The notes under the pieces are model-generated. The model did not search any database. It was not told the origin of the DNA and saw only the letters and a program-made list of their open reading frames with translations. Positions 4,719 through 57,534 of a DNA stretch of 64,000 nt are shown here, piece by piece (position 1 is the stretch's first letter; each line of letters opens with the position of its first letter). Position numbers and translations under genes: made by a program. Source of the DNA: a virus. The stretch is taken from IMG/VR virus record IMGVR_UViG_3300037258_000352, positions 32,001 to 96,000 of that record; one strand, 5' to 3'.

Positions 4719-4765
4719 TGTGCTGTCCTCCGTGTCTGGTAGGTCTCCGCTGACCTACACCCGGT

Positions 4766-4793
4766 GTATCGCCGGTCGGGTCCGGTCCGTTAC
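4766..4793 (-). promoter_or_regulatory. ECF (SigD-type) promoter GTAAC-N17-CGATAC
   Basis: Exact motif; -35 contains the TAA stop of the methyltransferase gene. Confidence 0.75.
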
Positions 4794-5977
4794 AGCGAAC
4801 CGTTCAGGAGAAGCGCGACCGCTTCAGCGGCTTGGTGGGGTACGACCCCGTTCCCTGCGAGGCGGATCATGTCGTTCCTGGACAGCCCGGGGACGGTGGT
4901 GACCCACCCGTCGGGCCAGCCCTGCATCCATTCCGTGAAGTAGGGGCTTAACTGCTGGCCACCTCGCTGGCCGGTGACGGTTGGGTTGGGTGCTCGGCGC
5001 CCGAGGATGGTCTCCCACCTATAGATGGCTGGCCCGTAGTCGGTTCCATCGACACTGACCCAGGATCGTGGGGAATGAGCATCCTCACGGCCATCACCAG
5101 TGGTGTTCCGATCCCGTTGCCGTTGCGGCCCTTCTCTTTCTCCCGTTCTCTCCTGGCTTGCCAGGACTCCACCGATTCCCCGTCGTTGAAGTTCCCCGCG
5201 GTCGGAGTCGGGAGCAGCGCAATCGCATCGTCCAGGTTCCGTTTGCCTTGCGAGTACCGCAACCTCGCCGTCCTGACCGACATCGACCGACTCGAACCGT
5301 CGCCGTCCCGTGCTTGCGGTGTTGGGAGTAGCTGCATCACCGCACTGGGCAGCATCAAATCCCCACTGCTGCCCCGCTGGTTCGGTCCGCCCTTCTCCCC
5401 ATCCGACGCCCACACCGTCGACAGCAGGGCGGGCGACGATGAAGACCCTGAACCGGCCATGGGGGGCGCCAACGTCGGACGCTCGTAAACTGACCCATTC
5501 CGCATCGAACCCGAGGCTGGCCAGATCTCCGCAAACGGCGCCGCATGCCCGCAAAGCGCTATCCTCGTCGTCTCCCACACACCACGGGCAGGGTTCCAAG
5601 TCGCAAGCGGCTGCGGTGCTGAGTAGGCCGCGCACATTTTCGATCACCACCAGCTTCGGTCGTAGTTTGTTGATCGCGTAAGCCATGTGGGACCACAACC
5701 CCGACCGGGTCCCCGGCCGCAGCCCAGCGCGTTTCCCGGCGGAGCTGACATCAACGCAAGGGAACCCACCGGTTAGCACGTCGATCGGCTCGACCGTGTC
5801 CCAATCAACGGTCGTGATGTCCCCGGAGTTGGGCACTCCGGGCCAGTGGTGCGCGAGGACCTTCGACGCGGCGGGGTCGTTCTCCACGAACCACACCGGT
5901 TCCACGTCGAGGACCGAACCGACGGCGAGTTCCAACGCGCCCGCGCCGGCGAAGAGGCACCCGCTGCTCATGGTCAC
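4790..5977 (-). CDS. DNA (cytosine-5) methyltransferase
   Basis: LFAGAG, GGFPC, ENV, GAPHGRFRVF, EWMQGWP, GNGVVP motifs. Confidence 0.93.
   Translation of the reverse strand: MTMSSGCLFAGAGALELAVGSVLDVEPVWFVENDPAASKVLAHHWPGVPNSGDITTVDWDTVEPIDVLTGGFPCVDVSSAGKRAGLRPGTRSGLWSHMAYAINKLRPKLVVIENVRGLLSTAAACDLEPCPWCVGDDEDSALRACGAVCGDLASLGFDAEWVSLRASDVGAPHGRFRVFIVARPAVDGVGVGWGEGRTEPAGQQWGFDAAQCGDAATPNTASTGRRRFESVDVGQDGEVAVLARQTEPGRCDCAAPDSDRGELQRRGIGGVLASQERTGEREGPQRQRDRNTTGDGREDAHSPRSWVSVDGTDYGPAIYRWETILGRRAPNPTVTGQRGGQQLSPYFTEWMQGWPDGWVTTVPGLSRNDMIRLAGNGVVPHQAAEAVALLLNGSL
4948..5637 (-). CDS. Out-of-frame nested ORF within C5-MTase (LLPTP-repeat polypeptide)
   Basis: WPASGSMRNG and repeated LLPTP units as seen in alternative-frame partners of phage C5 MTases. 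Confidence 0.6.
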   Translation of the reverse strand: MCAAYSAPQPLATWNPARGVWETTRIALCGHAAPFAEIWPASGSMRNGSVYERPTLAPPMAGSGSSSSPALLSTVWASDGEKGGPNQRGSSGDLMLPSAVMQLLPTPQARDGDGSSRSMSVRTARLRYSQGKRNLDDAIALLPTPTAGNFNDGESVESWQARREREKEKGRNGNGIGTPLVMAVRMLIPHDPGSVSMEPTTGQPSIGGRPSSGAEHPTQPSPASEVASS

Positions 5978-6169
5978 TGCTGTCTCCGTGTCTCAGGTCC
6001 CGTTGACCTGTGGGGGTTATCGGCCGGTCCGGTCCATCCACTTCGCTAAGGAGATCGCCCCACAGGTGATGCCCATGATCGGGATGGTGGCGATCGCCGC
6101 GAACTCCACAAACAGGGTGAGCATCAGGTTCTCCTTGGGTGGGCTCCGGTGCGGTGCCCTACATTCCCT

Positions 6170-6197
6170 GTATCGCTGGCCGGGTCGGGTTCGTTAC
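6170..6197 (-). promoter_or_regulatory. ECF (SigD-type) promoter GTAAC-N17-CGATAC
   Basis: Exact motif upstream of the MTase unit. Confidence 0.75.
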
Positions 6198-6524
6198 AGC
6201 CCGTTGGGTGGTGGGGTCCGGGGTCAGGCATGGAAGTCCGCAGCCGATCAGCCCGCTGCGCTCACCCCGGCTCTTAGGATCGGCCGCTCCATATCCTGGC
6301 TGCCTGGCCCACCACCCGAACACAGTCAACTAGCTGGGATTTCGATCAGGATCGTCTCATCTTCGTCCATGTCCAAACCATCAGGATCAGTCACTGTTCC
6401 TCCTCTCGTGACGTTCATTCGCTAGCCGGTGAACCCGACCAGCGGTGCGGAGTACGGCAGGTGGGCAGACGCCAGCCTTTGACCCGGCTGAGTTGGATCC
6501 GCTGCGGAGTCACCAGCTCGGTCA

Positions 6525-6998
6525 TTAACTCAACCACCCGGACTGCGTCAGCATCTCCACCCACACCGGCTCCAACCCCGGCCGGTGCTGCCACTCCTCC
6601 GGACCGGATCTCATCGCGAGGTGATTACGAGTGACGGCCACCAACTCATCCAGCTCACCGGGGGTTACCCATCGCATCGCCCGGGTTTCGTCTTCGCTGC
6701 GGACCGGCTCACCAGTGGTGTCGGCGGTGAACACTTCCCAGGCGTGGTGATCCCCCCTGGGTCGCCGGCACCGGTTTCCGTACCGGGCGCGGTGGATCAC
6801 CGTCAAGCACGACGCGGTCAATCCGACTTCTTCGCGAAGCTCCCGCAGCGCAGCTTGCGCGTAGGTCTCCCCGTCGTCTACATGTCCCGCTGGTGGAGCC
6901 CACCCGTAGGGAGGTCGCCGACGTTCGATCAGCAGCAGTCGACCGTCCCGGTGGACGAGGATCCCGGCGCTGGTGTTGGTGCAAGACTCGATCGTCAC
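6525..6998 (-). CDS. NUDIX hydrolase
   Basis: GHVDDGETYAQAALRELREEVGL Nudix box. Confidence 0.92.
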   Translation of the reverse strand: MTIESCTNTSAGILVHRDGRLLLIERRRPPYGWAPPAGHVDDGETYAQAALRELREEVGLTASCLTVIHRARYGNRCRRPRGDHHAWEVFTADTTGEPVRSEDETRAMRWVTPGELDELVAVTRNHLAMRSGPEEWQHRPGLEPVWVEMLTQSGWLS

Positions 6999-7273
6999 GT
7001 CGACTCCTCCCCGAGCTTGGTCCGGGTCGCGTCAATGAACGCGTCTAACCATGGGGGATGCCCATCCATGTTCGCTTCGAACACGTGCCCGATGTAGGAG
7101 TCCGTCAGCGGGGCAACGTCGATCCCGACGTCGGGGAGCGCAACCCACTGACCTGATTGGTCGCGGACGTAGGTGACGGTGACCGAGGTGATCCACACGA
7201 TCCGGTCACCGAGGTCCACCGGATCCTCCCCGGTCACCGTCCCCGTCACTTCCACCTGACTAGCCCGGATCAT
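6995..7273 (-). CDS. Hypothetical protein, paralog of 7270-7557
   Basis: Shared VTY.RDQ.G.WV and P.W...FIDA.R motifs; overlapping start/stop. Confidence 0.7.
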   Translation of the reverse strand: MIRASQVEVTGTVTGEDPVDLGDRIVWITSVTVTYVRDQSGQWVALPDVGIDVAPLTDSYIGHVFEANMDGHPPWLDAFIDATRTKLGEEST

Positions 7274-7557
7274 GACGAATCTCCCTGCTCGATGGTTGGG
7301 CGGGCAGCGTCGATGAACTCAGTCACCCACACCGGAAACTCCGGACCCAACTCGTCCACCGGGCCGGTGTAATCCGAGTCGAGGTACATGCCGTTGACCG
7401 GGACCCCGTACTGGTGGTGGACCCACGCCCCGGTTTGGTCCCGCTCGTAGGTCACTCCGATCGTGTCCACGTCGACCACACCGCAGGCGTACCGAACCGG
7501 TGTCTTCCCGGACACTTTCCCGGTCACCGTGATCCCCGTGATCTCAACCATCGTCAA
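7270..7557 (-). CDS. Hypothetical protein, paralog of 6995-7273
   Basis: Same shared motifs as 6995-7273. Confidence 0.7.
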   Translation of the reverse strand: MTMVEITGITVTGKVSGKTPVRYACGVVDVDTIGVTYERDQTGAWVHHQYGVPVNGMYLDSDYTGPVDELGPEFPVWVTEFIDAARPTIEQGDSS

Positions 7558-7599
7558 CCTCCAACCAGAAGCGGGCGACCTCGGAGTCGGTCCGCGTGA

Positions 7600-7830
7600 T
7601 CACGCTGGTACCCGCTTCATAGCTCGTCGCTCATCGGGAGTGGTGCCCCCGGAGATCCCCGCGTCCTGCCCTGTCGTCAGAGCCCAGTCCAAGCACTCCG
7701 AGTTGACCGGGCAACGCCGGCACACGGCCTTAGCCTCGGTGATCTGCAGCAACGCAGGACCCGACGTCCCGATCGGAAAGAACAATTCGGGATCTTCCTC
7801 CCTGCACGCTGCACGGTGCCGCCAGTCCAT
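7600..7830 (-). CDS. whiB: WhiB1/WblE-like Fe-S transcription factor
   Basis: MDWRHRAACREEDPELFFPIG..C..C.....C..GISGG; GGAGGTG RBS. Confidence 0.93.
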   Translation of the reverse strand: MDWRHRAACREEDPELFFPIGTSGPALLQITEAKAVCRRCPVNSECLDWALTTGQDAGISGGTTPDERRAMKRVPA

Positions 7831-8298
7831 CCCACTCACCTCCATCGCTTCGGTTGGTGCCAGCGGCACCGGTTAGTTACAGCTCAATGTCCGGTGCTGA
7901 CCCCGAGGGTCAACCGCGGGGTGGGGGCTGGTGGTGCGTTGTTCGCGGTGTCCCGCCACGGCCCGCACTGCTCATGATCGTGCGCGGTCCCACCCCGACC
8001 GGCCTCGTTCGCGGCCACCCCCGAGCACTGCTCGACCTTGCTGTGTGTTCTACTCCCGAACATTCCGTGTCCCTCCGTGTCTGGTGGTGTCCGCACACCA
8101 CCCGTTGTCACCCGGCCCGGTCGAGCCGGCGGGTCCCTCGTCCCTGCGGGTAGGTCCGCAGCCACATCCCCGCGCATTTCACTGCGGTCTCGTACACCGC
8201 TGGGACCGTGTCCCTCGAGAACGCCATCAGCTCAACCATCGTCAGGGGGAGCCGTTCGAGGCAGTCCCCACAGGTCCCGCAGTCCCCACCGCAGTCAC

Positions 8299-8520
8299 TC
8301 ACTGGGGAAACGAGAGTGTTTCGCTGATAACGGTCATCGTGCCCCGCGCCCACCGGGGTAGCCGGTCGTCGGCCGCGATGTATCCGGTTGCGCGTGCGGC
8401 GATCTCACCGTCGTCAGTGGGATCCACTTCCCCGGGTGCGATCCATTCGGCTTCGAGTGCGGCTGCGTGCCAAGCTTCGGGGTCGACGTCGATCTCGATG
8501 ACGATTCGCGCTCTGATCAC
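8299..8520 (-). CDS. Hypothetical protein
   Basis: Preceded by leader variant and SigA-like promoter. Confidence 0.6.
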   Translation of the reverse strand: MIRARIVIEIDVDPEAWHAAALEAEWIAPGEVDPTDDGEIAARATGYIAADDRLPRWARGTMTVISETLSFPQ

Positions 8521-8574
8521 TGTGGTGTCCCTCCGCGTCTACCGGCGTCCGCCACGCCAGTCTGTAATGTCACA

Positions 8575-8603
8575 AGACTACATCCGTGGGTGGTGACCGT
8601 CAA
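8575..8603 (-). promoter_or_regulatory. SigA-type promoter TTGACG-N17-TAGTCT
   Basis: Consensus hexamers with 17-bp spacer. Confidence 0.6.
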
Positions 8604-8750
8604 CGGTTACCGGGGAGGGTCCGAAGTCGATCGGACCGATCCGGATCCCCGACGGGTCCACCCCGTCCATCGCGGCGAGCTTGTCCCGCATCGAGGTCAA
8701 CACCTCAGCCAGGACCCGCTCCACACCCAACGAGACCTCACACCGGCACA

Positions 8751-9026
8751 TCAGAGCAGCGCCAGCACGATCACCAAACAACCCACCACCATCAACGACA
8801 CCGCGAACGTCGCCAGCATCGCCCGGTACTCCGCGCGCTTCACCGCGATCATCAGGTCCTCATCCGCTAACACCGTCGCCAACGCTGCGGGGCCCTGCTC
8901 CACGACACCAACCGATCCACCCATGGTCAGGAACTTGGCCATCAACTCCGCTGCCTCCCGAGCAGTCCCACACCCCACAGTGAGGGAGTCGGCCCCGTTT
9001 TTCGTTTCGACTGTGTAGCTCTTCAT
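8751..9026 (-). CDS. Hypothetical membrane-anchored protein
   Basis: GACACGGAGG leader; C-terminal TM. Confidence 0.55.
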   Translation of the reverse strand: MKSYTVETKNGADSLTVGCGTAREAAELMAKFLTMGGSVGVVEQGPAALATVLADEDLMIAVKRAEYRAMLATFAVSLMVVGCLVIVLALL

Positions 9027-9075
9027 GCTGATCAATCCCTCCGTGTCCTCGTTCCGCTGTGCCTTACATCCCGTA

Positions 9076-9103
9076 TAATCGCGAGGGCCGGCCCGGGTGT
9101 TAC
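9076..9103 (-). promoter_or_regulatory. ECF promoter variant GTAAC-N17-CGATTA
   Basis: Motif variant with conserved spacing. Confidence 0.55.
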
Positions 9104-9131
9104 ACCCTGACCGGCCCTGGATTCCCGACGC

Positions 9132-9638
9132 TCACACCGCTTCGGAGGGTAACCCCGGGCCAGCGTGTTCGGTGAGGTATTCCCGCCACGTCCAATCCAG
9201 TCGCCCGTTCCACAGACCGTCCTCGACGGTGGCGGTGGAGAACAACGCCGCCCGGCTCGCTGCGACCCGCCCGACCCGGAAGTAGGCGCCCTGCGGGTCG
9301 AACCCTTCCACTCGCAACGCCCGCCCCGCCGCTTCGAGCGCTAGCCACGCGTCCCGCAGCTCCGGGTACGCGATGGCGACCACCTCCCGCCGGCGGTCGA
9401 GCTCGACACTGCGGCGCGCGGACCGGAGGGCCTGCTCGGCTTGGGCGTAGGTCAGGGTCCATCCGGTAGCGGCTTTGACGTGGGACCGCCCGAGGGTCAT
9501 CACCCGACCGTCGGGGTTGACGACGTCGTAGAGGTGTTTCAGTGGCCGGCCGCAGTGGTCACACGACCCCTCGGTGTGCCGGATCCCCGTCAAATACCAA
9601 GCGCTGGACCCGATCTGCGCTGCTGCGGTGGGGCTCAT
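9132..9638 (-). CDS. Hypothetical protein with CxxC motif
   Basis: Leader motif and promoter upstream; CDHCGRPLK. Confidence 0.65.
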   Translation of the reverse strand: MSPTAAAQIGSSAWYLTGIRHTEGSCDHCGRPLKHLYDVVNPDGRVMTLGRSHVKAATGWTLTYAQAEQALRSARRSVELDRRREVVAIAYPELRDAWLALEAAGRALRVEGFDPQGAYFRVGRVAASRAALFSTATVEDGLWNGRLDWTWREYLTEHAGPGLPSEAV

Positions 9639-9686
9639 GTCGTCCTCCGTGTCTCCGGGCCGGTCCGCTCCGGCCCTCTGACCTGT

Positions 9687-9714
9687 CTATCGCCGCCCGG
9701 GCGCGGTTCGTTAC
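9687..9714 (-). promoter_or_regulatory. ECF promoter GTAAC-N17-CGATAG
   Basis: Motif; -35 overlaps TAA stop at 9711. Confidence 0.7.
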
Positions 9715-10061
9715 CGGTGCCTAAACCCCCGCTTCACCAGCGCGCTGGTAATCACCTGGTCCGTCTGGACGGCTTTCCGGGCCGCCGCCAGCGTCGGGTA
9801 AGGGCCCTGCTCAGGGTCGGTGGACCAGCAGATCCCCACCCACCACTGACCCTTACCTCCGGTCGCTACTCCGTCGGCGTCGCGTTTGGTGACGTACCCG
9901 CCGGTAGTGGACTCCGTCCCGGCCTGTAGCAACACCACCTCGTACAAGGGGTAGTCGGCCCGGGACACGCTGAACTCCCTCACCCGCAACCGCAGCGCGA
10001 CAGTGCGCGCCTTGCGGGTTTTCGTGGTGGACATGGCCTCTCCCTGGTCGTTGGTGGTCAC
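9711..10061 (-). CDS. Hypothetical protein
   Basis: ORF coupled to upstream gene, RBS present. Confidence 0.55.
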   Translation of the reverse strand: MTTNDQGEAMSTTKTRKARTVALRLRVREFSVSRADYPLYEVVLLQAGTESTTGGYVTKRDADGVATGGKGQWWVGICWSTDPEQGPYPTLAAARKAVQTDQVITSALVKRGFRHR

Positions 10062-10252
10062 GAGTTGCCGACGATGGTCACAGCGCCGGTGATGATCAGG
10101 GCCGCGACCACGACGAGTACCGCACCGGTCACACCGACGAAAGCGGCACCACCGACAGCAACCGTGACCGTGAGCCCAAGCAGGATCAAAATCACGGCCA
10201 TCGCGTGCCTCCTCCGTGTCTGGAGCGGGTCCGCACCCGCCCTACACACCTT

Positions 10253-10280
10253 GTATCGCTACCCGCCCCGCCGGTGTTAC
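10253..10280 (-). promoter_or_regulatory. ECF promoter GTAAC-N17-CGATAC
   Basis: Exact motif; -35 overlaps TAA stop at 10277. Confidence 0.75.
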
Positions 10281-11716
10281 AGCGCGCACTCCGCGACGAT
10301 GGTCCGCATCGCCACCGTGACCGCGAGCCTGAACGCGTCGAGCTCGAACCTCGATCCCTCGATGACAACGTCGCATCCACCGGGACCGATGAGGACCAGA
10401 CCCCACCCATCGTTGGCGATCCGCGACCCGTCGGGCAGCACCTCCCCCGGGTAAGCGACCCGCACCGGCGCCGTCGCCGGCAGCGACTCCACACGCTCAG
10501 CCATCACCAATCACTCCGATCCGGTTAGGGGCAGCACACCAGGCACGGTGGGTGCGAGGTCGCGCCGCAGTAGCACTCCGTTGGTGCGTCGTACTCGGGG
10601 GCGGGCCCGTGGTCGGGTGCCACTGGGCCGTGGCCCTTGCGGATCACGTTGCCCCGCCCGGGGTCCTCCCCGTCGCACAACTCCCGGTCACCACCGACGC
10701 CAGCGACGACCGCCCGCCATGGGGCCTGGGTCGCGATCCGTTCCACCCCGACCCGGCACCGTTGGCAAGACCCGAGCAGCGCGTCCCCCGCTGGGTCCGG
10801 TGCTGGCGTCGGTCGTTGCCGTGGGCGAGGTCTGCTAGCGACAACCGCCCGGGCGAGACCGATCACGCCGGCGTAGAACTCATCGGCCGGGCCCATCACG
10901 CGGTCGGATCACTGATCAGGCAGAGCGGGCAGTAATCCACACCGACCGGCACCGGTGTACCGCACCCGACGCAGTCGGCCAGCTTCACCCACAATCGACA
11001 TAGGTATCTCACGCCCTGCTCCCTCCTTTGTTGGGTCGGATCTCGAAACCGGACATGGCTAGCGCGTGGTGCAGTGCGACGACGTCCTCATCGAACATCA
11101 CCGGCCACGGGCACCCACCGAGATTGCACACCGTCATCCCGTATCGGCAGGCTCGGTGACCCGACCGGATTTGCTCCACAACCTGTCGCAGCGCGGTCAG
11201 GCCAGCGTCCCCGGACATCAGAGCCACCCGTTCGCGAATCCGACCAGGGCCAGTTCGCGGTGCATCTTCACGATGGGCTCGGCTGCGTGGTCGGGGAGGA
11301 TCCACTCCAAACCGGTGGGATCTACGGTCCGCCAGGATTCGGGGATCGCGTCGGCGACCTGCTCGAAATTGCGTAACCACACCTCGTGAGTGGTCATTTG
11401 CTTCCGTCCTCCGTGTCCCAGCCGGGTCCGTCGCCCGGCGCTCGCTACCTGCGTCATCCCCTGGGGAGGATCCGTGTCCTCTCGCGGTACTCATTGCAAA
11501 TCCCGATGATCTGAGCGTCGCTGAGGTGTTGGACCACGCCGTGATCGGTGACCAATCGCCCCGCCGACTGCAAGATCTGTCGCATGACAGCCGGGACCAC
11601 AACCCGAGCTTTCTTCCCTTCCAGCGTGCGGTAGGTGACGAGGTGCTCAACCTCAGTGTCCGTGGACATGGGGGCCTCCCTTGTCTCGGTGGCCCGGGTG
11701 GGGCCGCTCACTATCT

Positions 11717-11744
11717 GTATCGCCGCCCGGTGTGCGGGTGTTAC
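11717..11744 (-). promoter_or_regulatory. ECF promoter GTAAC-N17-CGATAC
   Basis: Exact motif; -35 overlaps TAA stop at 11741. Confidence 0.75.
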
Positions 11745-11944
11745 GCCGCCCACGCGAGCAGTCCCGCATACACTGCTTCCTCGACCAGTTCCGGGTCCGG
11801 GATGTGGCGGATGAACTCCCGCTTCGCGCCGTCGTCGTGTTTCCCACCCGACTCGACCCGGATCGACCCGTACCCCAACAGGCGTTGCACGTAGGTCTGC
11901 TCCACCGTCAAATCGGTGTGCTCGCCCCCTGCATCTCCAGCCAA
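11741..11944 (-). CDS. Bacterial PH-domain (bPH_2-like) protein fragment
   Basis: VEQTYVQRLLGYGSIRVESGG. Confidence 0.55.
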   Translation of the reverse strand: MAGDAGGEHTDLTVEQTYVQRLLGYGSIRVESGGKHDDGAKREFIRHIPDPELVEEAVYAGLLAWAA

Positions 11945-11971
11945 CTAGTCCACGTCGTCGTGCACACAACC

Positions 11972-12424
11972 TCACCTCCACCTGTTAGCGCGGTCGATGG
12001 ACGCACCAACAGCCTCATCAACCGTGGGGTAGATATGGATCCCACGACGGGTGGCCAGTTCCCGGAGATAGGCGCGGGCACGGTTTAAGTCCTTCAACTC
12101 GCGCCCTGTGATGGTCTGGCCGTCGATCACAGTTCCGTCGGTGATGTTGTGGATGACGAGCAGGGCGTCGTACGAGTTGACGGTGGCCACGAACTCGGTC
12201 GCCTCCAGCATCGACGCGATGGCCCGGGTCTGGTGGTCGATGACGAACAGCACCTCAACGGACGCGATCTTCGCGTCGGCTTCGGCCTTCACGAGTTCTG
12301 GGGACCAGTCCTCAACTTGAGGGTTGTAGTAGGACACCCCCGCTGCCTCTAGCAGGGGGATGGCGATGTCCGCGCGCCACGTGGTCGGGTTGCAGCTTCC
12401 GCCTAGGAACAGGTGTGGCCTCAT
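11972..12424 (-). CDS. Nucleoside 2-deoxyribosyltransferase-like protein
   Basis: FLGGSCNPTTWR..YYNPQV.DW..E; leader motif upstream of ATG 12424. Confidence 0.7.
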   Translation of the reverse strand: MRPHLFLGGSCNPTTWRADIAIPLLEAAGVSYYNPQVEDWSPELVKAEADAKIASVEVLFVIDHQTRAIASMLEATEFVATVNSYDALLVIHNITDGTVIDGQTITGRELKDLNRARAYLRELATRRGIHIYPTVDEAVGASIDRANRWR

Positions 12425-12469
12425 TCGTTTACTCCTCCGTGTCTGTGCTGGCCCGCACCAGCAACCCCC

Positions 12470-12540
12470 AGGGTAAACCTGGGTGGTCCCAGCGTCAACG
12501 CTTACAACCTGTGTATCGGCCGGGACCACCACCGCGTTAC
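12470..12540 (-). promoter_or_regulatory. Tandem promoter: ECF GTAAC-N17-CGATAC (12540-12513) followed by SigA TTGACG-N17-TACCCT (12498-12470)
   Basis: Both motifs present; near-copy at 20544-20613. Confidence 0.7.
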
Positions 12541-20543: not shown

Positions 20544-20613
20544 GTAACGCCGGCTGGGGTGTGGCCGATACAGGGGTGTAAGCGTTGACACCCGCACACC
20601 ACAGGTTTACTCT
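20544..20613 (+). promoter_or_regulatory. Tandem promoter: ECF GTAAC-N17-CGATAC (20544-20571) plus SigA TTGACA-N17-TACTCT (20585-20613)
   Basis: Exact motifs. Confidence 0.75.
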
Positions 20614-20657
20614 TGAGAGGTCGGTGCGGACCGACGGGACACGGAGGAATCAAGGCG

Positions 20658-42451: not shown

Positions 42452-42479
42452 GTATCGCTGACCACCGACGGGGTGTTAC
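42452..42479 (-). promoter_or_regulatory. ECF promoter GTAAC-N17-CGATAC
   Basis: Exact motif followed by hairpin leader. Confidence 0.75.
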
Positions 42480-49419: not shown

Positions 49420-49754
49420 TTGGTCCCTCCGTGTCTGCCGGTCCGCTACCGACGCTTACCGCATGATCCTACACCTGCACCCACTACCTGACTATGTGTT
49501 GGGGGTGTCGGTGAGGTAGTAACCGACACCCGTCCCGCGCTTGCACAGGGCCTCGTACCAACCCCACCCGGCGCGCCGGGCGACCGGATGCTCGTGACGC
49601 TGCGTGCAATACGGGCACAGGACGACCCCAACCATCCACCGCCCCAACCCCGGATCCCCGGGGTCCCGGTCCTCGATCTCCGAGGAGTAGGTGTTCACCC
49701 GACGCCCGGGGTCCTCATCGAAACCGACCGTCGGGTGATCACCCATGTACCGGA

Positions 49755-50513
49755 TCACCCGACGCCACCGAACGTGAGGACACCCTGCGACAGTCGGGCT
49801 GTCACCGCCCGTTCACACTGCGCTTCCCGCTTCTCGAACCCGATCGCACGCCGGCCCGTCGCTCGAGCTGCGACCAGCGTGGAGCAGCTACCAGCGAAGC
49901 AATCAAGGATCAGACCACCCAGTGGACAGCCGTATTCAATCAGAGGCTCAAGGATCCCCCGTGGCTTCTCAGTCTCGTTAATAGCGGTGCCGTGCATGGA
50001 TCGTGAGTAGATGACCGAGCCCATCATGCGAGGACCACCGTTGTGACTCACATAGGAACCAGAGTCGATGTGCCCGGTGTGGGCCGGTTGTGCCTTGCGA
50101 CGGACCTGCTTCTTGACTGCATCCTGCGTCGTTGGGGCGAGATGGTGAACGTCCGACCACGGACCTCGGTACCAGTGCGTTGCGTGCTCATGCATTCGCC
50201 GGAATCGGTCAGCGTGGAACGTTGACCCGTTGTGCTTCTCCCACACCACGTCCTGCGAGAACTTCCAGCCCGTGAACTCATCCCGCCTATCGAGGAACAT
50301 CCGCATCGACCCGAAACACCACATCGAGTTCCCCGGGATCAGCGACGGCCACCCAGCGGGCCACCGGTCCCAATCCAGACTCGTCTCCCCGTACGGGGGA
50401 TCACACACGGTGAGGTCCGGGACGATCCCCAACTCGGGGAGGATGTCCCGGAAGTCCCCGCAGTACAACGTGACCTCGTCGTCGGCGTAGTAGGGCTCCG
50501 GGCGGGTCACCAT
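49755..50513 (-). CDS. DNA N4-cytosine/N6-adenine methyltransferase
   Basis: DPPY, TEKP, ILDCFAGS.ST. Confidence 0.9.
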   Translation of the reverse strand: MVTRPEPYYADDEVTLYCGDFRDILPELGIVPDLTVCDPPYGETSLDWDRWPAGWPSLIPGNSMWCFGSMRMFLDRRDEFTGWKFSQDVVWEKHNGSTFHADRFRRMHEHATHWYRGPWSDVHHLAPTTQDAVKKQVRRKAQPAHTGHIDSGSYVSHNGGPRMMGSVIYSRSMHGTAINETEKPRGILEPLIEYGCPLGGLILDCFAGSCSTLVAARATGRRAIGFEKREAQCERAVTARLSQGVLTFGGVG

Positions 50514-52900
50514 GGTTGCCCGATCCCTATCCGGGCGTACTTCCCCACGAACGACAGCCGCACGTCCCCCGTCGGCCCGTTCCTATGTTTGTCGACGATC
50601 ACCGTGATGTCCTGCGGTTCGTCATCACGACGCCACAGCAACAGGATCTTCGACGCGTTGTGACCCACCGCGCGGGACTCCCGCAGGTCCTCCTTCGTTG
50701 GCCGGCCACCGATCCGTTTCGTCGGCTCCGAGTTGAGCTGATGCAACACCACGATCGGGCACCCGAGCTGCTTCGCGAGCTCCTTAAGCTCCCACGACAA
50801 CCGCGACAACTGCTCCTGCCGGGACACCTTCGGATCCGCCGGCGACATCAACGACAACTGATCCACCACCACCAACCCCGGGTGCCCCAACTGCTGACAC
50901 CGCGCCCGGATCTGCGCCACAGACAACCCGGGGGTGTCATCCACCCACAAGGGCCACTCCTGAATCCGCTCCGCAGCTTTCTTCGCCCGGTACTGATCTT
51001 CCGGTCCGAGCTGGTGTTCCATCAGATCCGACAGGGGGACGGTGCCAACGTCCGCGACCCACCGGGCCATGACCTCATCCGTCGTCATTTCCAGGGTGAA
51101 CATCACCGTCCGGACCCCGTCTTGGGCCGCGGCCCGCGCGATCGACCCCCCGAACAGGGAGTTGTGCGTAGGGATCATCGTCGGCCCTGCGAGGTAGAGG
51201 TGATCACTGTTGTCGACCTCGATACACCGCACGGGGACGCTTGCCACTGGCCGGACCGCGCGAATCATCCTGCGGGATGACCGCTGTGGGGCTCTCTGCC
51301 GCTCTACTTTCCTGGTTAGTTTGAAGACTTTGTCTCCGGGCGTAAAATTGATCATGTAGCAGGTTGAGGACTTCTCCGTCCTGCCTTTGACCCGTTTGGT
51401 TCGCATGGTGGCTCGGTACCCAAGACTCAGGATCAGTTCTAGAGTTCCCTCGGCCAGCACCTTGCTGGTGACAGCGAACTGGACCTTTCCTAGTTTGCAG
51501 ACATACCCGTCGGTGTCTAGTAGCCCGGCTAGTAGCTCCCGGCGTTGTCCTACAGACGCCCGCAGGTAGGCGACCGGAATGTGTTTGTTCATCACTAAAC
51601 CGGCGCGCCTTAGATCTGTGATCAGTCCATAGACTGTCCTATGGGGACACGTCCTCACTGCTTTCCCGATGGGTGGCCCTACTTCATAACCGCAGAACGA
51701 GATGTTGTCGAACACTTCTGGATCAGCGCCGCACATCGTCCCATGCAAGGAATCACCGTCTCCGAGCCAGCAACCCAACACATAAGGATCTATCGGGAGA
51801 TCTTCCGACTCGGGTAACTCCAACGGAGCTGCCAGCTTGACCGAGTGGTTGACGTATGTCCCGAATCGGAGCGTCGCCATGATCTGCTCCGTCGTCACCA
51901 CTGAGGGATGGATCTGCTTCCACCGCTGGTCGATGGAATAAGGGGAGGTCCTGGCCAGGGTGTTATCAACGTGGGTGCATCGTGAAGATCGTGTCTCCGT
52001 CAGCCACTGGTGATCTGCGTCCGCTACGAGCACTGATCCGTCAGAGAACTCCACCTCATAGCAGGGACGACCCGTCATCACCGGGGTCGCGTTCGTGACC
52101 GTGGTCGGTTTGCCGTCCGCTCCGAACACTTGGTCGCCTACCTGAACCGTGCCCATGGTCGTCCAACCTGTCGGCGTGGCCAGGGGCGTATCCAGAGCGA
52201 GAGCCTTCCCGACGCTGGTGTTGGCTGCGACGACGATCAGCTCACCGATCCGCAACCCCCCGGAGAGTTGCTCATCGAGCGCTGGCCACGACGTTTTCAC
52301 GACCCCCACCGGAGGCCGGTCCAACGACTCAATGAACGACCACACCGCCGGCTCCGCATGCACCAGCGTCTGCGACTGGTCCCGGGACGTGGTGGCGTCG
52401 GTGAACTCCCGGCGCGCGAAGTCCAACACCTCATCCAGCGACGCGCCTTTCGACCCGTGCTCCGCGAGTTGAGTGATCCGCAAACCGGCCTCCCGGACCC
52501 GCCGCAGCACAGCTTTCGCGGCGACGATCTCCGCGTAGTAGGTGACGTTCGCGGCGGTGGGAGTGGCTTGCATCAGGGTGTGCAGGTACGGGCCGCCCCC
52601 CACCCGCAGGAGCTCACCACGCCGGTCCAACTCCTCCGACACGGTCACAGGGTCCGCGGGTTCCCCGCCCGCCCACAACGCCGTCACAGCAGCCCAGATT
52701 TGGCTGTGACCGGGCCGGTAGAAGTCTTCCGGGGTCAACACCCCGGCGACGTCGTCCAACGCCCTAAACGACACCAGAACCGACCCGAGGACCGCTTGCT
52801 CCGCGTGGAGGTCCTGCGGTGGCTGGTTGTCCAGCTCGGGTTCGCCCTCCTCGCTCGGGGCGTCGTCCCATCCGGAGGTGTCAGCGGACACCGGGAACAC
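50507..52900 (-). CDS. dnaB: Replicative helicase DnaB with intein
   Basis: PPQDLHAEQAVLG, DFYRPGH, SVGK|..|S Walker A, LEM, VVDQL, DLRES, KHRNGPTG. Confidence 0.95.
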   Translation of the reverse strand: MFPVSADTSGWDDAPSEEGEPELDNQPPQDLHAEQAVLGSVLVSFRALDDVAGVLTPEDFYRPGHSQIWAAVTALWAGGEPADPVTVSEELDRRGELLRVGGGPYLHTLMQATPTAANVTYYAEIVAAKAVLRRVREAGLRITQLAEHGSKGASLDEVLDFARREFTDATTSRDQSQTLVHAEPAVWSFIESLDRPPVGVVKTSWPALDEQLSGGLRIGELIVVAANTSVGKALALDTPLATPTGWTTMGTVQVGDQVFGADGKPTTVTNATPVMTGRPCYEVEFSDGSVLVADADHQWLTETRSSRCTHVDNTLARTSPYSIDQRWKQIHPSVVTTEQIMATLRFGTYVNHSVKLAAPLELPESEDLPIDPYVLGCWLGDGDSLHGTMCGADPEVFDNISFCGYEVGPPIGKAVRTCPHRTVYGLITDLRRAGLVMNKHIPVAYLRASVGQRRELLAGLLDTDGYVCKLGKVQFAVTSKVLAEGTLELILSLGYRATMRTKRVKGRTEKSSTCYMINFTPGDKVFKLTRKVERQRAPQRSSRRMIRAVRPVASVPVRCIEVDNSDHLYLAGPTMIPTHNSLFGGSIARAAAQDGVRTVMFTLEMTTDEVMARWVADVGTVPLSDLMEHQLGPEDQYRAKKAAERIQEWPLWVDDTPGLSVAQIRARCQQLGHPGLVVVDQLSLMSPADPKVSRQEQLSRLSWELKELAKQLGCPIVVLHQLNSEPTKRIGGRPTKEDLRESRAVGHNASKILLLWRRDDEPQDITVIVDKHRNGPTGDVRLSFVGKYARIGIGQPW
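51161..52204 (-). mobile_element. Class 3 intein (348 aa) with LAGLIDADG endonuclease
   Basis: Ala1 ALALDTP, HQW, LGCWLGDG, LAGLLDTDG, VRCIEVD, PTHN|S. Confidence 0.92.
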
Positions 52901-53534
52901 CCCGACGCAAATCCGGGCCCCTGAACGGGACCACCGTGGCCGACTCCATCAGCCGGGACGTCACCCGCTCACCGAACTTCTCACCGAACTCACTAGGCGG
53001 AACATTCGTGGTGATCAAAGTCGGGCGCATCCACTCATACCGGGCATTAATCAACCGGTCGAACACCTCATCAGTCCACGCCGAATCCTTCGTTGCGCCC
53101 ACGTCGTCGATGACCAGGACCGACGCCCCAGCGAGGCCCTCGAACACCTCTTCCGAGTCCACCCCCTGCCGCGGCCGTAACGACGCGAACAACCCCGTCG
53201 CCGTCACAAACTGCCACCGGCAATACACCCCCGACACCGACAAGGCCCGCAACGCCCCCCACGCCTGCCAAGACTTCCCACGACCGGCCTTACCCGCCAA
53301 CACCAACGACGGTCCCGACCGGATCACCGGGTACTGGTTCCGCATCCCATCGACCGCTTCCGCGATGACATCCCGGACCCACCGGTCAACCTGCGGATCG
53401 GTCACGGTCGCGTCCCGGTGCCGGGCCGGTAAGTGTTCCTGCAGCCGGGTTCGTCCTTCCTTGTCGGCTTCCTCGATGGCGTAATCCGCTGCCCCATCGT
53501 CGGTGGTGACCCGCACTATCACCGCATCACTCAT
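52881..53534 (-). CDS. DnaC/IstB-like AAA+ helicase loader
   Basis: GKAGRGKS, LVIDDVG, RYE..PTLITTN, G.R..SRL, GPDLR. Confidence 0.9.
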   Translation of the reverse strand: MSDAVIVRVTTDDGAADYAIEEADKEGRTRLQEHLPARHRDATVTDPQVDRWVRDVIAEAVDGMRNQYPVIRSGPSLVLAGKAGRGKSWQAWGALRALSVSGVYCRWQFVTATGLFASLRPRQGVDSEEVFEGLAGASVLVIDDVGATKDSAWTDEVFDRLINARYEWMRPTLITTNVPPSEFGEKFGERVTSRLMESATVVPFRGPDLRRGVPGVR

Positions 53535-53551
53535 GATCGTTGTCCTCCGTG

Positions 53552-54490
53552 TCAGTAGTTCATCGGCGCGTCATACGCGTCGTCCGCGAGGTGCTCGAAA
53601 TGCCGCGCGTAACCTCCGCTACCCCGCCTATCGCTGCCCGAGCGCCCAGCGTTACCGACCGTGGCCGGCTCGTCCTCCCACCGCTGCCCGTTGAGCCACG
53701 TCGTCGCGTGCGCCACGTAGGACCCCGTCCGGTGCAGCTCCACGACGTACCGATCCAACCCAGCCATGATCACATCCGGGTCGGCTGCCTTGATCGCTTT
53801 CGGCCACGCCTTCCACGCGTCCTTCTTGGCCGTCTTTCGGGGGTAAACCGCCCAGAACTTGGCGAAGGTTTCCTCGGCTTTGCGGTTGATCGGGACAACC
53901 GGCCTAGACGAGGTCGGTGAGGGCATCCCGTCCAGCGTTCCCTGTCCGTCCTGGCTGGGGTTGGCCTGCGCCGCGCGCGCGGGTGCGCCTACGCGTGTGT
54001 GCGCCCGCGCCCGTGGAGAGATGATCTCTTCGTTAGAAGAGATCAAGGGGTTAGTGGTCGGTTCCACTGGTCGGTTAACTTCAAAAGAGTCTTTGGCCGG
54101 CTCAGCAGGTGAGCCGGGGGGGGCCTGCAGGTGAGCCGGGGGGGGCTCAGGGATGGACCGGGGGGGGCTCACCTTTGGTGGGAGCGTCGAAATGTGGAAG
54201 TTCCACCCGGCGAGCCCCCCGTCACTTCTGGTCCGGGCGGTCTTCGCGACGACGTTGATCTCTTCCAGTTTCACCATCGCTCGTTTGTAGGAGGAGACGC
54301 TGAGGCCGGCTCGTTCAGCGACCGCTTCTCGGCTGGGGAAGCAGTCACCGCCGCTGTCGGCGAAGCTGCGGAGCGCGATGTAGACGCGGAGACTGGCGCC
54401 GTCGAGGTCGTATTGGAGTAGCCAGATCGGGATGATCGAGTACGGGCCGATGTCTGTGGTGACCCGGGAGTTCTCTTGCTGTTCGCTCAT
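53552..54490 (-). CDS. Phage replication initiator (N-terminal HTH, C-terminal FW..YPRK domain)
   Basis: CFPSRE.VAE, FWAVYPRK..K..A.KAW, H.TTWLN..RWED. Confidence 0.85.
   Translation of the reverse strand: MSEQQENSRVTTDIGPYSIIPIWLLQYDLDGASLRVYIALRSFADSGGDCFPSREAVAERAGLSVSSYKRAMVKLEEINVVAKTARTRSDGGLAGWNFHISTLPPKVSPPRSIPEPPPAHLQAPPGSPAEPAKDSFEVNRPVEPTTNPLISSNEEIISPRARAHTRVGAPARAAQANPSQDGQGTLDGMPSPTSSRPVVPINRKAEETFAKFWAVYPRKTAKKDAWKAWPKAIKAADPDVIMAGLDRYVVELHRTGSYVAHATTWLNGQRWEDEPATVGNAGRSGSDRRGSGGYARHFEHLADDAYDAPMNY
54105..54174. repeat. Iteron-like repeats inside initiator gene (putative origin)
   Basis: GCAGGTGAGCCG(7-8) twice, a third CCG(8), and an inverted GCTCACCT. Confidence 0.55.
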
Positions 54491-55303: not shown

Positions 55304-55954
55304 TCACGCCACCACCCCCACGTCCTCGTGGAGCCATGACGCAGCGTCGTCGGGGAGTAGCTGAGCGAGACGCCTGATCGCCCTGTGCTGCAGCGCTTTC
55401 ACGGCACCGTCGTTGCGGTTCAATGCCGCTGCGGTCTCCGTGACGGACAGGCCAGCGTAGAACCGTAGGCCGATGCAATCCCGCTGGTCTCTGGGTAGTT
55501 TCCGGAGACACGTCGTGAGGTGCTGGGCGTAGAACTTGGTCATGATCCGGCTGATGGCTTCGCCGGCGGTGTTTTCTTCCGCGTACCGTTCGGGGACTTT
55601 GTCGACGGTCCGGTCCCAGCGGTGTCTCGCTGATCGGACGTGGTCGAGGAGGAGGTTCCGGGCGATGGTGACGACCCACGCACCGAACTCTTTCCCGTTG
55701 CCACGGTCAGCGACGGATTGGATCCTCCGCAGTGCGCGGCACCACACTTCACCGGCCATTTGCTCGACGGTGGAGCGGTCGCGGTCGTCGAGCCGGTAGA
55801 GGAGGTACCGGTAGATCATCAGGTGGTGTCGTTCGTACAGGACGCTGAAAGCGTCGCGGCCTGTGTCGCCGCCCTGCTGGGCGAGGGTGACGAGTTCCCA
55901 GTCCCCGAGTGGGGCGTTGTCCAGTACGTTTACTGTCGATGGCTGAGCGGTCAT
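55304..55954 (-). CDS. ECF sigma factor, BldN-like
   Basis: RALRRI, FGAWVVTIARNL..DH..S, QRDC..LRF..GLSV.ETA..G.VKALQHRA.R.LA.LLP. Confidence 0.9.
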   Translation of the reverse strand: MTAQPSTVNVLDNAPLGDWELVTLAQQGGDTGRDAFSVLYERHHLMIYRYLLYRLDDRDRSTVEQMAGEVWCRALRRIQSVADRGNGKEFGAWVVTIARNLLLDHVRSARHRWDRTVDKVPERYAEENTAGEAISRIMTKFYAQHLTTCLRKLPRDQRDCIGLRFYAGLSVTETAAALNRNDGAVKALQHRAIRRLAQLLPDDAASWLHEDVGVVA

Positions 55955-56008
55955 CGAACGATGCTCCTTCTGTGTCGGTTCTCCCCGCGGGCAGCGGGCC
56001 GGTATCGG

Positions 56009-56500
56009 TTAGGGGTTTCGAGGGGGACCAGTCGCGAGCTGGTCCCCCTCGCATGTGTCGGGATGGTTACCGCCCGTGGTTGGGACGGTGAGCCCGGTCA
56101 TGGAGTGGTGGGCCCGGGCGGTGTGGTGCCGGCCGTAGATGCACGTGGACCCGTCGGGGAGTTTGAAGTCGCAGTACTCCCCGCGCATGGTGGGGGTGCC
56201 GTGCCCGAGTCGGGCCAGCAGCACGGTGATCACGGTCGCGGCGCGTTCGGCGTTCCATGCGGGGGTGGTTTTGTCGTCGGGTGAGTCCCACGCGTTGTCG
56301 AGGTCGTACAGCCACGAGGAGATGTCCTCGGCGAGGTCCGCTCGGGTAGCGGGGTCGATGAACGGGCTGAACGCGGCGGTGGCCACTTCCTGCCCGGTCG
56401 GGCATTCCCACGCGTCGCCGTGGACGCGTGACTTGACGTGACCGAGCGCGCGGCACACCGCGGCGGTGGCCTGCTGGTGGATGTGCCGGGGCCTCACCAT
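56009..56500 (-). CDS. Hypothetical protein
   Basis: ORF in leftward operon. Confidence 0.45.
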   Translation of the reverse strand: MVRPRHIHQQATAAVCRALGHVKSRVHGDAWECPTGQEVATAAFSPFIDPATRADLAEDISSWLYDLDNAWDSPDDKTTPAWNAERAATVITVLLARLGHGTPTMRGEYCDFKLPDGSTCIYGRHHTARAHHSMTGLTVPTTGGNHPDTCEGDQLATGPPRNP

Positions 56501-57243
56501 GCCACCTCGTGCTCAACGGTCCACCGCTGGTAGGTGGGCAGGGTGTAGGTCACGTCGGGGCAGGAGCGGGACAGGTCCACTGTGCTCGGGAACACGGCGA
56601 CGTTGTCGGGGAAATCGGTGGCCACGGGGACAGGGTCCTCGCTGGGGTTGATCAATAGCAGCTCACCTAACGCGATGAGTTCCACCACGGCGTCGGCGAT
56701 GGGTTCAAGGTCGGCTTCGGTGTGCTGTTGGCCGCGTGCGACGTTGTCGCTGGTGTTGTTCCACAGGTACGTGTATCCGGGCCACGGCGCTGGTTCGAGG
56801 TCGGCCGCTTCGTCCCACGCGAGGTTCAACAACACTTGGCGGGCCAGGCCAGTCGCGCGGGAGTAGGCGAACACCCACTCGAACACGTTCAGCGGCAGCC
56901 CAGTGCGGGCCTCGATCTGACGGTCGGCGAGGGTTTCCGCAGTGCACAGGATCGTGCCGTGGTGTTCGTCGTGGCGGTAGCAGTCGAGGCCCGGGTCCCA
57001 CACCCAGTACCGCTGGAGGTGGTCGGTGTGTGTTTGGGGCCAGATAGCCGTAACCCCGGACTGGTCGGGGGACTGGTCCGGGGTTCGTGCTGATGCGGTG
57101 GCCCCAACGACGGGACGACAACCGTCGCTCAGCGTACCGGATGGTGGGGGGGTCGTGTGGGGCATGTGTGCCTCCTGGTTGTCGTGTTGTTCGGCCCTGC
57201 GGTCGAATTGCGTCGTTGGGTGGTTCCCCCCGGCGGGCATCAC
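56494..57243 (-). CDS. Hypothetical protein (likely start about 57165)
   Basis: AGGAGG RBS; WVFAYSRATGLARQVLLNLA segment. Confidence 0.55.
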   Translation of the reverse strand: MMPAGGNHPTTQFDRRAEQHDNQEAHMPHTTPPPSGTLSDGCRPVVGATASARTPDQSPDQSGVTAIWPQTHTDHLQRYWVWDPGLDCYRHDEHHGTILCTAETLADRQIEARTGLPLNVFEWVFAYSRATGLARQVLLNLAWDEAADLEPAPWPGYTYLWNNTSDNVARGQQHTEADLEPIADAVVELIALGELLLINPSEDPVPVATDFPDNVAVFPSTVDLSRSCPDVTYTLPTYQRWTVEHEVAW

Positions 57244-57287
57244 TCCGCAGGTTTGGTCACGTTACACCGTGAAGTCTTCCGCTGGGT

Positions 57288-57315
57288 ATATCGCCCGCGA
57301 AGTTTTGGACGTTAC
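57288..57315 (-). promoter_or_regulatory. ECF promoter GTAAC-N17-CGATAT heading the sigma/replication operon
   Basis: Motif variant in divergent intergenic region. Confidence 0.65.
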
Positions 57316-57398
57316 TCCCCGCAGTCGATCACCACGCGCCGTGACATCACGCGCGCTGCGGAACCTCAGGTCACCGGGGACCCACAGCCGCCGGATCG

Positions 57399-57426
57399 TT
57401 GACGGGTGACCCGTTGGGTGTACGGT
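57399..57426 (+). promoter_or_regulatory. SigA-type promoter TTGACG-N16-TACGGT
   Basis: Followed by hairpin plus GACACGGAGG leader. Confidence 0.55.
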
Positions 57427-57534
57427 GGTGGGGTTGGTAGCGGACCAACACCCCTGACACGGAGGACCAGCAATGCCCGATATCCGGACTCGTATCCACG
57501 GCGAGCCACCCATGGCTGAAAGCGAAGGTGGACG

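Follow-up and report, generated by a model that had tools for sequence, protein, structure and literature searches.

A stretch of 64,000 nucleotides (the window), bases 32,001-96,000 of IMG/VR virus record IMGVR_UViG_3300037258_000352, carries a recurrent leader element in which a 10-base tag, GACACGGAGG, is fused to the ribosome-binding site and, in complete copies, is preceded by a promoter and a small hairpin. About 29 non-structural genes of this virus, designated here G000, begin with the tag. Judged from its sequence, the element is real and conserved, an as yet undescribed variant of the 'start-associated sequences' (SAS) of mycobacteriophages, and it very probably acts in mRNA. G000, the phage under study, is 104,286 bp long, with direct terminal repeats and a GC content of ~65%; its relatives, among them G001 and G003, are numbered in the same series, and positions of features follow the numbering of the window.

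Exact copies of the tag number 26 in the window, whereas dinucleotide shuffles yield 0.55 on average and at most 4 (0/100 reach 26), and the whole genome contains 27, with just one beyond the window. All but two of the 27 stand 5-14 nt (mostly 5-10) upstream of a plausible start codon, and the open reading frames (ORFs) behind these 25, with genes called by third-position GC content and codon likelihood, have third-position GC of 0.70-0.90. Three copies with one mismatch are also located at starts (5983, GACACGGAGA; 8530, GACGCGGAGG; 22039, AACACGGAGG). The two exceptions are the tag at 57456, which heads a 21-codon upstream ORF, and the one at 46605, which has no start codon. The tag positions listed in an initial annotation of this DNA are correct, save that the copy given as 24609 lies at 24608 and that the copies at 21155 and 46605 were missed. 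Twenty-six of the 27 tags fall within 36-90 kb of the genome, and one stands alone in the ~44-kb module that runs from terminase to lysis; the genes for the portal, protease, major head, major tail and tape-measure proteins have plain Shine–Dalgarno (SD) sequences and no tag. The tag is thus asymmetric, contains an SD, lies near many starts and occurs mainly outside the structural module, the properties by which start-associated sequences are defined.

The initial annotation described the tag as an extended SD, a view that is not supported. In the 53 other genes with GGAG before the start, there is no trend to GACAC at the five upstream positions, and because these untagged genes show neither such a preference nor partial forms, the tag is an all-or-none, discrete signal and not a graded extension of the SD. 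The GACAC part of the tag is, we presume, not complementary to the actinobacterial 16S anti-SD tail. In the relative G001, hairpins are followed by GACACGGGAGG, GACACGGCGGAGG, GACACGAUACGGAGG or GACACGAACUAGGGAG, in which a GACACG(G) box is accompanied by an SD displaced by 1-7 nt, and behind one hairpin comes GACACGGAAA, which lacks an SD, the nearest one lying 70 nt downstream. Since the box persists in G001 with a displaced or missing SD, the core signal is GACACGG, separable from the SD and normally overlapped with GGAGG.

Some leaders of G000 carry the box in modified form. At 8072, it is present in tandem, GACACGGAGG-GACACGGA-AUG (window 8063-8081, − strand), and in the leader of a sigma-factor gene (55955-55975, − strand) it is split, as GACACAGAAGGAG. 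Behind the tag at 57456, the stop codon of the upstream ORF overlaps (GTGA) the start of a 321-aa gene (57535-58500), an arrangement (57456-57540, + strand) that suggests translational coupling via a leader peptide.

In 19 leaders, 17 with exact and two with variant tags, a perfect stem of 5-8 bp ends 1-6 nt before the tag. Such a hairpin precedes 17 of the 27 exact tags (63%), whereas the share is 13% for random positions (p = 4e-9) and 14% for other GGAGG sites; when CG is required in the loop, the comparison is 17/27 against 6.5% (p = 4e-14). The loops are GCGG (8), AGCGG(A) (4), GGCGG, GACGG, AACGG, CGACGGA and CAGCGGT. Their common part is RCGG on the 3' side, and they end with CGGA in 12/19 cases and with CGGG or CGGU in seven. 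Loop and tag keep a constrained distance from each other (8.8 ± 1.3 nt), with stem length trading off against spacer length (r = -0.57), and the conserved loop and the GACACGG box lie ~13 nt apart. The arms of the stems are skewed, with 111 G-C against 38 C-G and 46 U-A against 4 A-U pairs, giving the inner consensus GGU-loop-ACC. The initial annotation had recognised these hairpins, and the six examples that it quoted are all present exactly as written, although its count of about 14 was too low and its loop, (T/A)GCGG(A/G), is conserved in a more varied form in which only RCGG is shared.

That covarying stems with a near-fixed loop make up a structural RNA element in the 5' leaders, as also proposed there, is borne out by two approaches that agree. 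RNAalifold, applied to a plain MAFFT alignment of the eight leaders with GCGG loops, gives a 6-bp helix with compensatory changes in 5/6 pairs. The same program predicts no structure when all 19 leaders are plainly aligned, since loops of different lengths throw the arms out of register. A covariance model built from the eight GCGG-loop leaders retrieved 42 leaders from G000 and its relatives. When 40 distinct leaders representing at least three lineages are scored, pairing holds in 97.7% of cells, where shuffles give 60.3% (0/500 reach the observed value), there are 74 double-sided changes against 21.9, all six pairs covary, the covariation score is 0.78 against 0.17, and slid controls pair at 21-47%; this alignment is model-fitted and so leans to structure, a bias of which the eight-leader RNAalifold result and the enrichment test are free. 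The stems contain 12 G·U pairs but only 2 A·C mismatches, a bias that indicates folding of the sense RNA and not of DNA. Covariance modelling and comparison with related phages, both named in the initial annotation as ways of checking the element, yielded strong covariation and a leader kept in very distant relatives; Rfam, named there as well, has no matching family (0 matches at the gathering score for the whole window and 0 at E <= 1 for 4600-12700).

Two pairings within the leader were considered by eye and rejected: the loop is not complementary to the tag, and pairing of an upstream GUGU with the ACAC of the tag is inconsistent across leaders. GGUGCGG and GAUCAC presumably resemble the 3' end of 16S rRNA; the loops of G001 bear no such resemblance.

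Promoter-like sites precede 14 of the 19 hairpins and are of two types, TTGACx-N17/18-TAnnnT, which resembles promoters of the host sigma-A, and GTAAC-N17-CGAT, which resembles those of SigD or extracytoplasmic function (ECF) sigma factors. Their identification as promoters is based on their recurrence and on the TAnnnT rule of actinobacteria. Both types are enriched over shuffles (6 against 1.1 for the TTGACx type, 17 against 0.5 for the GTAAC type), and the tag follows most of them. The 17 GTAAC-N17-CGAT(A) sites of the genome have invariant spacing (those of the window lie within 4768-57315, on both strands), and two leaders have both promoter types in tandem. From the end of the -10 element to the hairpin there are 5-7 nt in 7/8 of the sigma-A-like cases and 9-13 nt after CGAT. 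Actinobacterial transcription usually starts ~7 nt past TAnnnT. Because these 14 hairpins follow the -10 element by 5-13 nt, we infer from this rule that they lie at the predicted 5' end of the mRNA, each being the first structure of its transcript and preceded by few or no unpaired nucleotides. Where a tag has no hairpin, a promoter pattern is mostly missing too, and such tags look like operon-internal starts.

G000 encodes an ECF-type sigma factor of its own (Sigma70_r2 and r4; 55304-55954, − strand). G001 also has 17 GTAAC-N17-CGAT sites, and a tblastn search found no homologue of the G000 sigma factor there.

The individual leaders and tags of the window are the following.

4727-4793, − strand: full leader with GTAAC-N17-CGAT (4768-4793), hairpin (4739-4758, gtaggtc AGCGGA gacctac) and tag (4727-4736); gene 4071-4718, cation-efflux family.
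5983-6010, − strand: hairpin (5994-6010, caggtc AACGG gacctg) and variant tag GACACGGAGA (5983-5992); gene 4790-5977, C5 DNA methylase.
8072-8102, − strand: hairpin (8083-8102, ggtggtgt GCGG acaccacc) and tag (8072-8081), then a second GACACGGA running into ATG; gene 7884-8063.
8530-8603, − strand: TTGACG/TAGTCT (8575-8603), hairpin (8541-8561, loop GGCGG) and variant tag GACGCGGAGG (8530-8539); gene 8299-8520.
9038-9103, − strand: GTAAC-N17-CGAT (9078-9103), degenerate hairpin remnant (AGCGGA, stem lost) and tag (9038-9047); gene 8751-9035.
9644-9714, − strand: GTAAC-N17-CGAT (9689-9714), hairpin (9657-9676, gggccgg AGCGGA ccggccc) and tag (9644-9653); gene 9132-9638.
10211-10280, − strand: GTAAC-N17-CGAT (10255-10280), hairpin (10223-10242, gggcgggt GCGG acccgctc) and tag (10211-10220); gene 10058-10201.
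11408-11439, − strand: hairpin (11421-11439, gccggg CGACGGA cccggc) and tag (11408-11417); gene 11218-11397.
12434-12540, − strand: tandem GTAAC-N17-CGATA (12514-12540) and TTGACG/TACCCT (12470-12498), hairpin (12446-12463, tgctggt GCGG gccagca) and tag (12434-12443); gene 11972-12424, nucleoside 2-deoxyribosyltransferase-like.
20544-20647, + strand: tandem GTAAC-N17-CGATA (20544-20570) and TTGACA/TACTCT (20585-20613), hairpin (20620-20635, gtcggt GCGG accgac) and tag (20638-20647); gene 20658-21080.
21155-21164, + strand: tag without RCGG hairpin; gene 21172-21384.
21532-21541, + strand: tag without hairpin; gene 21556-22008, SsgA-like.
22039-22048, + strand: variant tag AACACGGAGG; gene 22056-22247, the G001 orthologue of which has the exact tag.
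24555-24617, + strand: TTGACG/TAGCCT (24555-24583), hairpin (24591-24606, gtcggt GCGG accggc) and tag (24608-24617); gene 24632-24772.
24776-24805, + strand: hairpin (24776-24794, cgggtct GACGG ggacctg) and tag (24796-24805) right after the preceding stop, promoter pattern not found; gene 24814-25356.
26970-26979, + strand: tag without hairpin; gene 26985-27152.
33417-33426, − strand: tag without hairpin; gene 33097-33411.
33918-33927, − strand: tag without hairpin; gene 33375-33911.
34540-34607, − strand: GTAAC-N17-CGAT (34582-34607), hairpin (34555-34569, gggtc AACGG gaccc) and tag (34540-34549); gene 34307-34534.
34931-34994, − strand: TTGACG/TAGTGT (34966-34994), hairpin (34943-34958, gttggt GCGG accaac) and tag (34931-34940); gene 34604-34921.
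39393-39456, − strand: TTGCCC/TAGGTT (39428-39456), hairpin (39406-39421, tgggtt GCGG gaccca) and tag (39393-39402); gene 38349-39389.
39943-40013, − strand: GTAAC-N17-CGAT (39988-40013), hairpin (39959-39975, ggccc CAGCGGT gggcc) and tag (39943-39952); gene 39719-39937.
42412-42479, − strand: GTAAC-N17-CGAT (42454-42479), hairpin (42424-42440, ccgggt GACGG acccgg) and tag (42412-42421); gene 42078-42401; the orthologous leader of G001 has the same layout and a different stem.
43477-43539, − strand: TTGTCG/TAACGT (43511-43539), hairpin (43488-43505, gcgggtt GCGG aacccgc) and tag (43477-43486); gene 43316-43471.
46605-46614, − strand: orphan exact tag without start codon, inside a ~90-nt imperfect hairpin directly after the recT-like stop codon.
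47785-47794, − strand: tag without hairpin; gene 46645-47775, RecT-like.
49426-49453, − strand: hairpin (49437-49453, gtcggt AGCGG accggc) and tag (49426-49435), with TAGGAT 12 nt upstream of the hairpin; gene 48688-49419, MarR-type helix-turn-helix.
53544-53553, − strand: tag without hairpin; gene 52881-53534, DnaC-like helicase loader.
57399-57465, + strand: TTGACG/TACGGT (57399-57426), hairpin (57433-57449, gttggt AGCGG accaac) and tag (57456-57465), heading the 21-codon upstream ORF 57473-57538, which overlaps the GTG of gene 57535-58500.

A composite promoter-plus-tag pattern finds six IMG/VR records. The looser pattern GCGG-N6-14-tag gave single chance matches only in IMG/VR, and the promoter-plus-tag pattern run against 185,579 bacterial genomes gave six single matches in unrelated phyla, which is the chance level, and no prophage or host. 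G003 is 88% identical to G000; G002 (49 kb, 10 tags) and G004 are ~90% identical to G001, which is complete (115,285 bp) and has 22 exact tags; and G005 represents a third lineage. Only 4.5 kb of G001, about 4% of its DNA, can be aligned with G000, at 72% identity, and 25 of 140 proteins are common to the two; nonetheless, G001 has the identical tag, both promoter types and the hairpin. Its tags are again limited to the non-structural parts of the genome, with none between 45.6 and 100.8 kb, and its loops differ somewhat, being GACG(G), GACGU and GCCG(G). Two orthologous gene pairs of G000 and G001 retain promoter, hairpin and tag with unrelated stems. Comparison of G001 with G002 reveals compensatory changes in one stem, and between G000 and G003 the promoter spacer has diverged in a leader in which the hairpin is identical.

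Short metagenome contigs from more distant relatives (L163, L165, L168 and L169) also carry GTAAC-N17-CGAT sites, but the leader that these share behind the sites is another one (…GTCATCCCAGTGTTGAGGAGCAAGCCATG) and contains neither hairpin nor GACACGG.

In G000, the terminase gene is located at 98.5-100.3 kb, the portal, protease, major head, major tail and tape-measure genes lie at 3-25 kb, and an endolysin gene occupies 136-1158 of the window. The remainder of the window carries non-structural genes, which include those for DnaB with an intein, a DnaC-like loader, a RecT-like protein and several DNA methylases, as well as the ECF-type sigma factor, an SsgA-like protein and a TraG/VirD4-like ATPase. 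Megablast and tblastn searches of cultured phages and plasmids found no close relative of G000. Because the terminase and the RecT-like protein are only ~35% identical to their counterparts in Rhodococcus, Gordonia and Mycobacterium phages, G000 is, by homology, an uncultured actinophage with no close cultured relative. One of the tags precedes the SsgA-like gene (21556-22008, + strand; PF04686, E = 5e-19), a member of a family connected with sporulation and cell division. Proteins of this family are characteristic of actinomycetes with complex morphology, a hint at the kind of host.

The reading that we favour, to which we give about an even chance, is that of a class-specific mRNA leader, consisting of a stabilising 5' hairpin and a recognition box fused to the SD and serving a common trans-acting factor. 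Non-structural (early and middle) genes would carry it as their standard 5' leader. A complete copy runs from the promoter to a stem-loop of 5-8 bp at or near the predicted start of transcription, then, after 1-6 nt, to GACACGG overlapping GGAGG and, after another 5-10 nt, to the start codon. As modelled on the 5' stabilisers of ompA and aprE, the 5'-terminal stem-loop, together with an SD strongly bound by the ribosome, would shield the mRNA from 5'-end-dependent RNases and drive initiation. In turn, the invariant GACACGG and the RCG(G) loop would offer a shared handle to one trans-acting factor, coded by phage or host, through which the whole class of genes could be translated or shut off together, following the logic of T4 RegA/RegB. 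Such a factor is favoured because stabilisation alone leaves the invariant box, the conserved loop, the fixed spacing and the absence from late genes unexplained. The initial annotation spoke of a cis-regulatory motif of the 5' untranslated region bound by an RNA-binding protein; the leader RNA element stands, and a protein may plausibly bind it.

Several observations weigh against this interpretation. No candidate for the putative reader was found: G000 has no CsrA (PF02599, E <= 10), RegA and RegB (PF01818, PF10715) have no match in G000 or G001, and there is no RNA-binding family among the best 25 of the 43 Pfam families matched by 96 proteins of the window. The loops vary between lineages while the tag is constant, which a single two-site reader explains poorly. 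No promoter can be recognised in five of the hairpin leaders, of which one (24796) directly follows a stop codon, and a scan for promoters with the E. coli consensus found nothing in 33-50 kb. Predicted SD accessibility is the same in tagged and untagged genes, a result that also led us to reject the idea of the hairpin as an insulator. The best-conserved shared protein without known function in the two tag-bearing lineages is P0001 (9711-10034, − strand), which has 107 aa with an Arg/Lys-rich N-terminus, is 77% identical in G001 and has just seven metagenomic homologues (72-80% identical). It was considered as a candidate reader, but its AlphaFold model is unusable (predicted local distance difference test, pLDDT, 48.5), the ESM Atlas gives nothing named for it, and it is absent from cultured phages. 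Its more distant homologues, on short contigs, adjoin leaders that have neither hairpin nor box.

Alternatively, the leader might simply be an optimised expression cassette that no dedicated reader recognises, the hairpin doing no more than stabilise or insulate the 5' end and the 10-mer being the ribosome-binding site preferred by the host, spread by recombination among phages that share it. We consider this possible, if on the unlikely side. Tag, hairpin layout and both promoters are common to phages that share few genes, as fits signals of a common host, the searches for CsrA, RegA and RegB and the best 25 of 43 Pfam families disclosed no phage-coded RNA-binding protein, and the hairpins are promoter-proximal (14/19), with operon-internal tags mostly lacking them. 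However, the most highly expressed late genes, those for capsid and tail, have no tag, and pairing with the ribosome fails to explain GACAC, which we take to be non-complementary to the anti-SD. The cassette also leaves unexplained that the tag has no intermediate forms, that the loop is conserved while the stems change freely, that GACACGG is retained even when detached from the SD, and that SD accessibility is predicted to be no better in tagged genes. We can speculate that the hairpin and GACACGG constitute the operator of a dedicated post-transcriptional regulator, either protein or RNA and either of phage or of host origin, which switches the early and middle genes of this uncultured actinophage group; this narrower proposal is tentative, and we would sooner doubt than assert it. 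If true, it would amount to a global RNA regulon in a phylum without known CsrA or Hfq, as well as to a tractable model for the start-associated sequences of mycobacteriophages.

A resemblance to CsrA/RsmA two-site operators, in which a dimer on the loop GGA and the SD GGA represses translation, was pointed out in the initial annotation. It rests on ACACGGAGG, which fits A(N)GGA, presumably the consensus of the RsmE/CsrA type, on CGGA in 12/19 loops and on the loop-tag spacing of ~13 nt. This explanation is now highly improbable, as the phage has no CsrA domain (PF02599, E <= 10), its relatives infect Actinobacteria, a phylum not known to have CsrA, it carries an SsgA-like gene, and GGA is not conserved, seven loops ending in CGGG or CGGU and those of G001 (GACG, GCCG, GACGU) having none. 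A non-coding antisense RNA of the phage, complementary to the tag (CCUCCGUGUC) and able to pair with every leader and so block its ribosome-binding site, would find a source in the orphan tag at 46605, which lies in a geneless, structured intergenic region where the + strand is a perfect anti-tag. Against it, neither strand of 46250-46700 shows a promoter pattern, part of the anti-tag is engaged in pairing when the + strand is folded, and a search for complements allowing G·U in both genomes revealed nothing else outside coding regions and tags, and no counterpart in G001; we hold it to be quite improbable. Improbable, too, is a signal at the level of DNA or transcription, with GACACGGAGG as an operator for a DNA-binding regulator, like the oriented 'stoperators' of cluster A mycobacteriophages (asymmetric sites of 13-14 bp to which the phage repressor binds on double-stranded DNA), or with hairpin and box as a nut or pause site for antitermination. 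In its favour, the short spaces between genes hold many oriented copies, the succession of hairpin and conserved linear box is reminiscent of boxB and boxA, and in G001 the hairpin with GACACGGAAA lies 70 nt upstream of the nearest SD. Yet the tight spacing of 5-10 nt to the start codon and the fusion with the SD are at odds with such a role, the covarying stems with G·U tolerated on the sense strand only argue against a purely DNA function, the copies are not limited, as nut sites are, to one or two per operon set, and no N-like or repressor candidate was identified.

In the region of the orphan tag (46530-46640), a near-copy of the tag, GACCCGGAGG, forms the opposite arm of the ~90-nt hairpin. 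A 3' structure, a decoy and an anti-tag RNA are all conceivable for this region.

Comparison with known systems places the leader closest to the SAS and extended SAS (ESAS) of cluster K mycobacteriophages, catalogued since 2011 with no tested function (PMC3203893; 188-genome survey, PMC12699233). Both are short, asymmetric, SD-containing sequences just before the start codons of 10-30 genes, with nearly all copies outside the virion structural module, with an upstream inverted-repeat feature at about half or more of the copies, and with conservation at orthologous genes across subgroups. The sequences themselves are different, GACACGGAGG here and the consensus GGGATAGGAGCCC in cluster K (PMC12699233), and they differ by more than the two mismatches allowed for membership; additionally, G000 has no sequence similarity to cluster K genomes. 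ESAS are sequence-conserved, imperfect 17-bp inverted repeats with a variable spacer, for which little support as RNA hairpins was found (PMC3203893), whereas the stems described here are 5-8 bp long, free in sequence and covarying, with a conserved loop. The element of G000 also differs in directly following two recognisable classes of promoters.

Known 5' stabilisers of mRNA include the 5'-terminal stem-loop of E. coli ompA, the aprE leader of B. subtilis and the polypurine 'Stab-SD' of SP82 and cryIIIA (PMC3997798), and a mycobacterial 5' stabiliser is exemplified by katG (PMC2358910). With them the leader would share a stem-loop at the extreme (here predicted) 5' end, a strong ribosome-binding site close behind and a short overall length. 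The stabilisers of ompA, aprE, SP82 and cryIIIA are single-gene cases not known to share a loop or box, whereas ~19 copies here have a loop and a 7-nt box in common. In T4, the translational repressor RegA and the endoribonuclease RegB both target ribosome-binding regions in early mRNAs. With the targets of T4 RegA/RegB, the leader shares a class-specific signal at the SD by which many early mRNAs are handled as one group, but homologues of these proteins are missing from G000 and G001, and the T4 targets have no common hairpin or invariant 10-nt tag. The likeness to CsrA/RsmA operators, a GGA loop and GGA at the SD, is confined to part of the copies and is offset by the lack of CsrA in the phage, the likely actinobacterial host and the relatives' loops without GGA.

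What the present case adds to that of cluster K is a clear upstream RNA hairpin, marked by compensatory substitutions and by a G·U bias on the sense strand, its location at the predicted 5' ends of transcripts from two classes of promoters, and an exact tag kept between phages that share almost no DNA and less than one-fifth of their proteins. These features narrow the mechanism to one that operates on mRNA and provide parts that can be mutated separately, namely the stem, the loop, GACAC and the SD. The promoter-hairpin-tag cassette marks transcription units and true start codons in a phage that is otherwise unannotatable, and it could serve as a compact expression leader for actinomycetes.

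Three further genes of the window are of note. The DnaB helicase gene (50507-52900, − strand) is split by an intein-type insert (LAGLIDADG/Hom_end), and that of a DUF5131 protein (36802-38181, − strand) holds an HNH_3 endonuclease insert. In addition, an ATPase of the TraG/VirD4 coupling-protein type (TraG-D_C, T4SS-DNA_transf) is encoded at 58497-60164 (+ strand), in a phage with terminase and tail genes.

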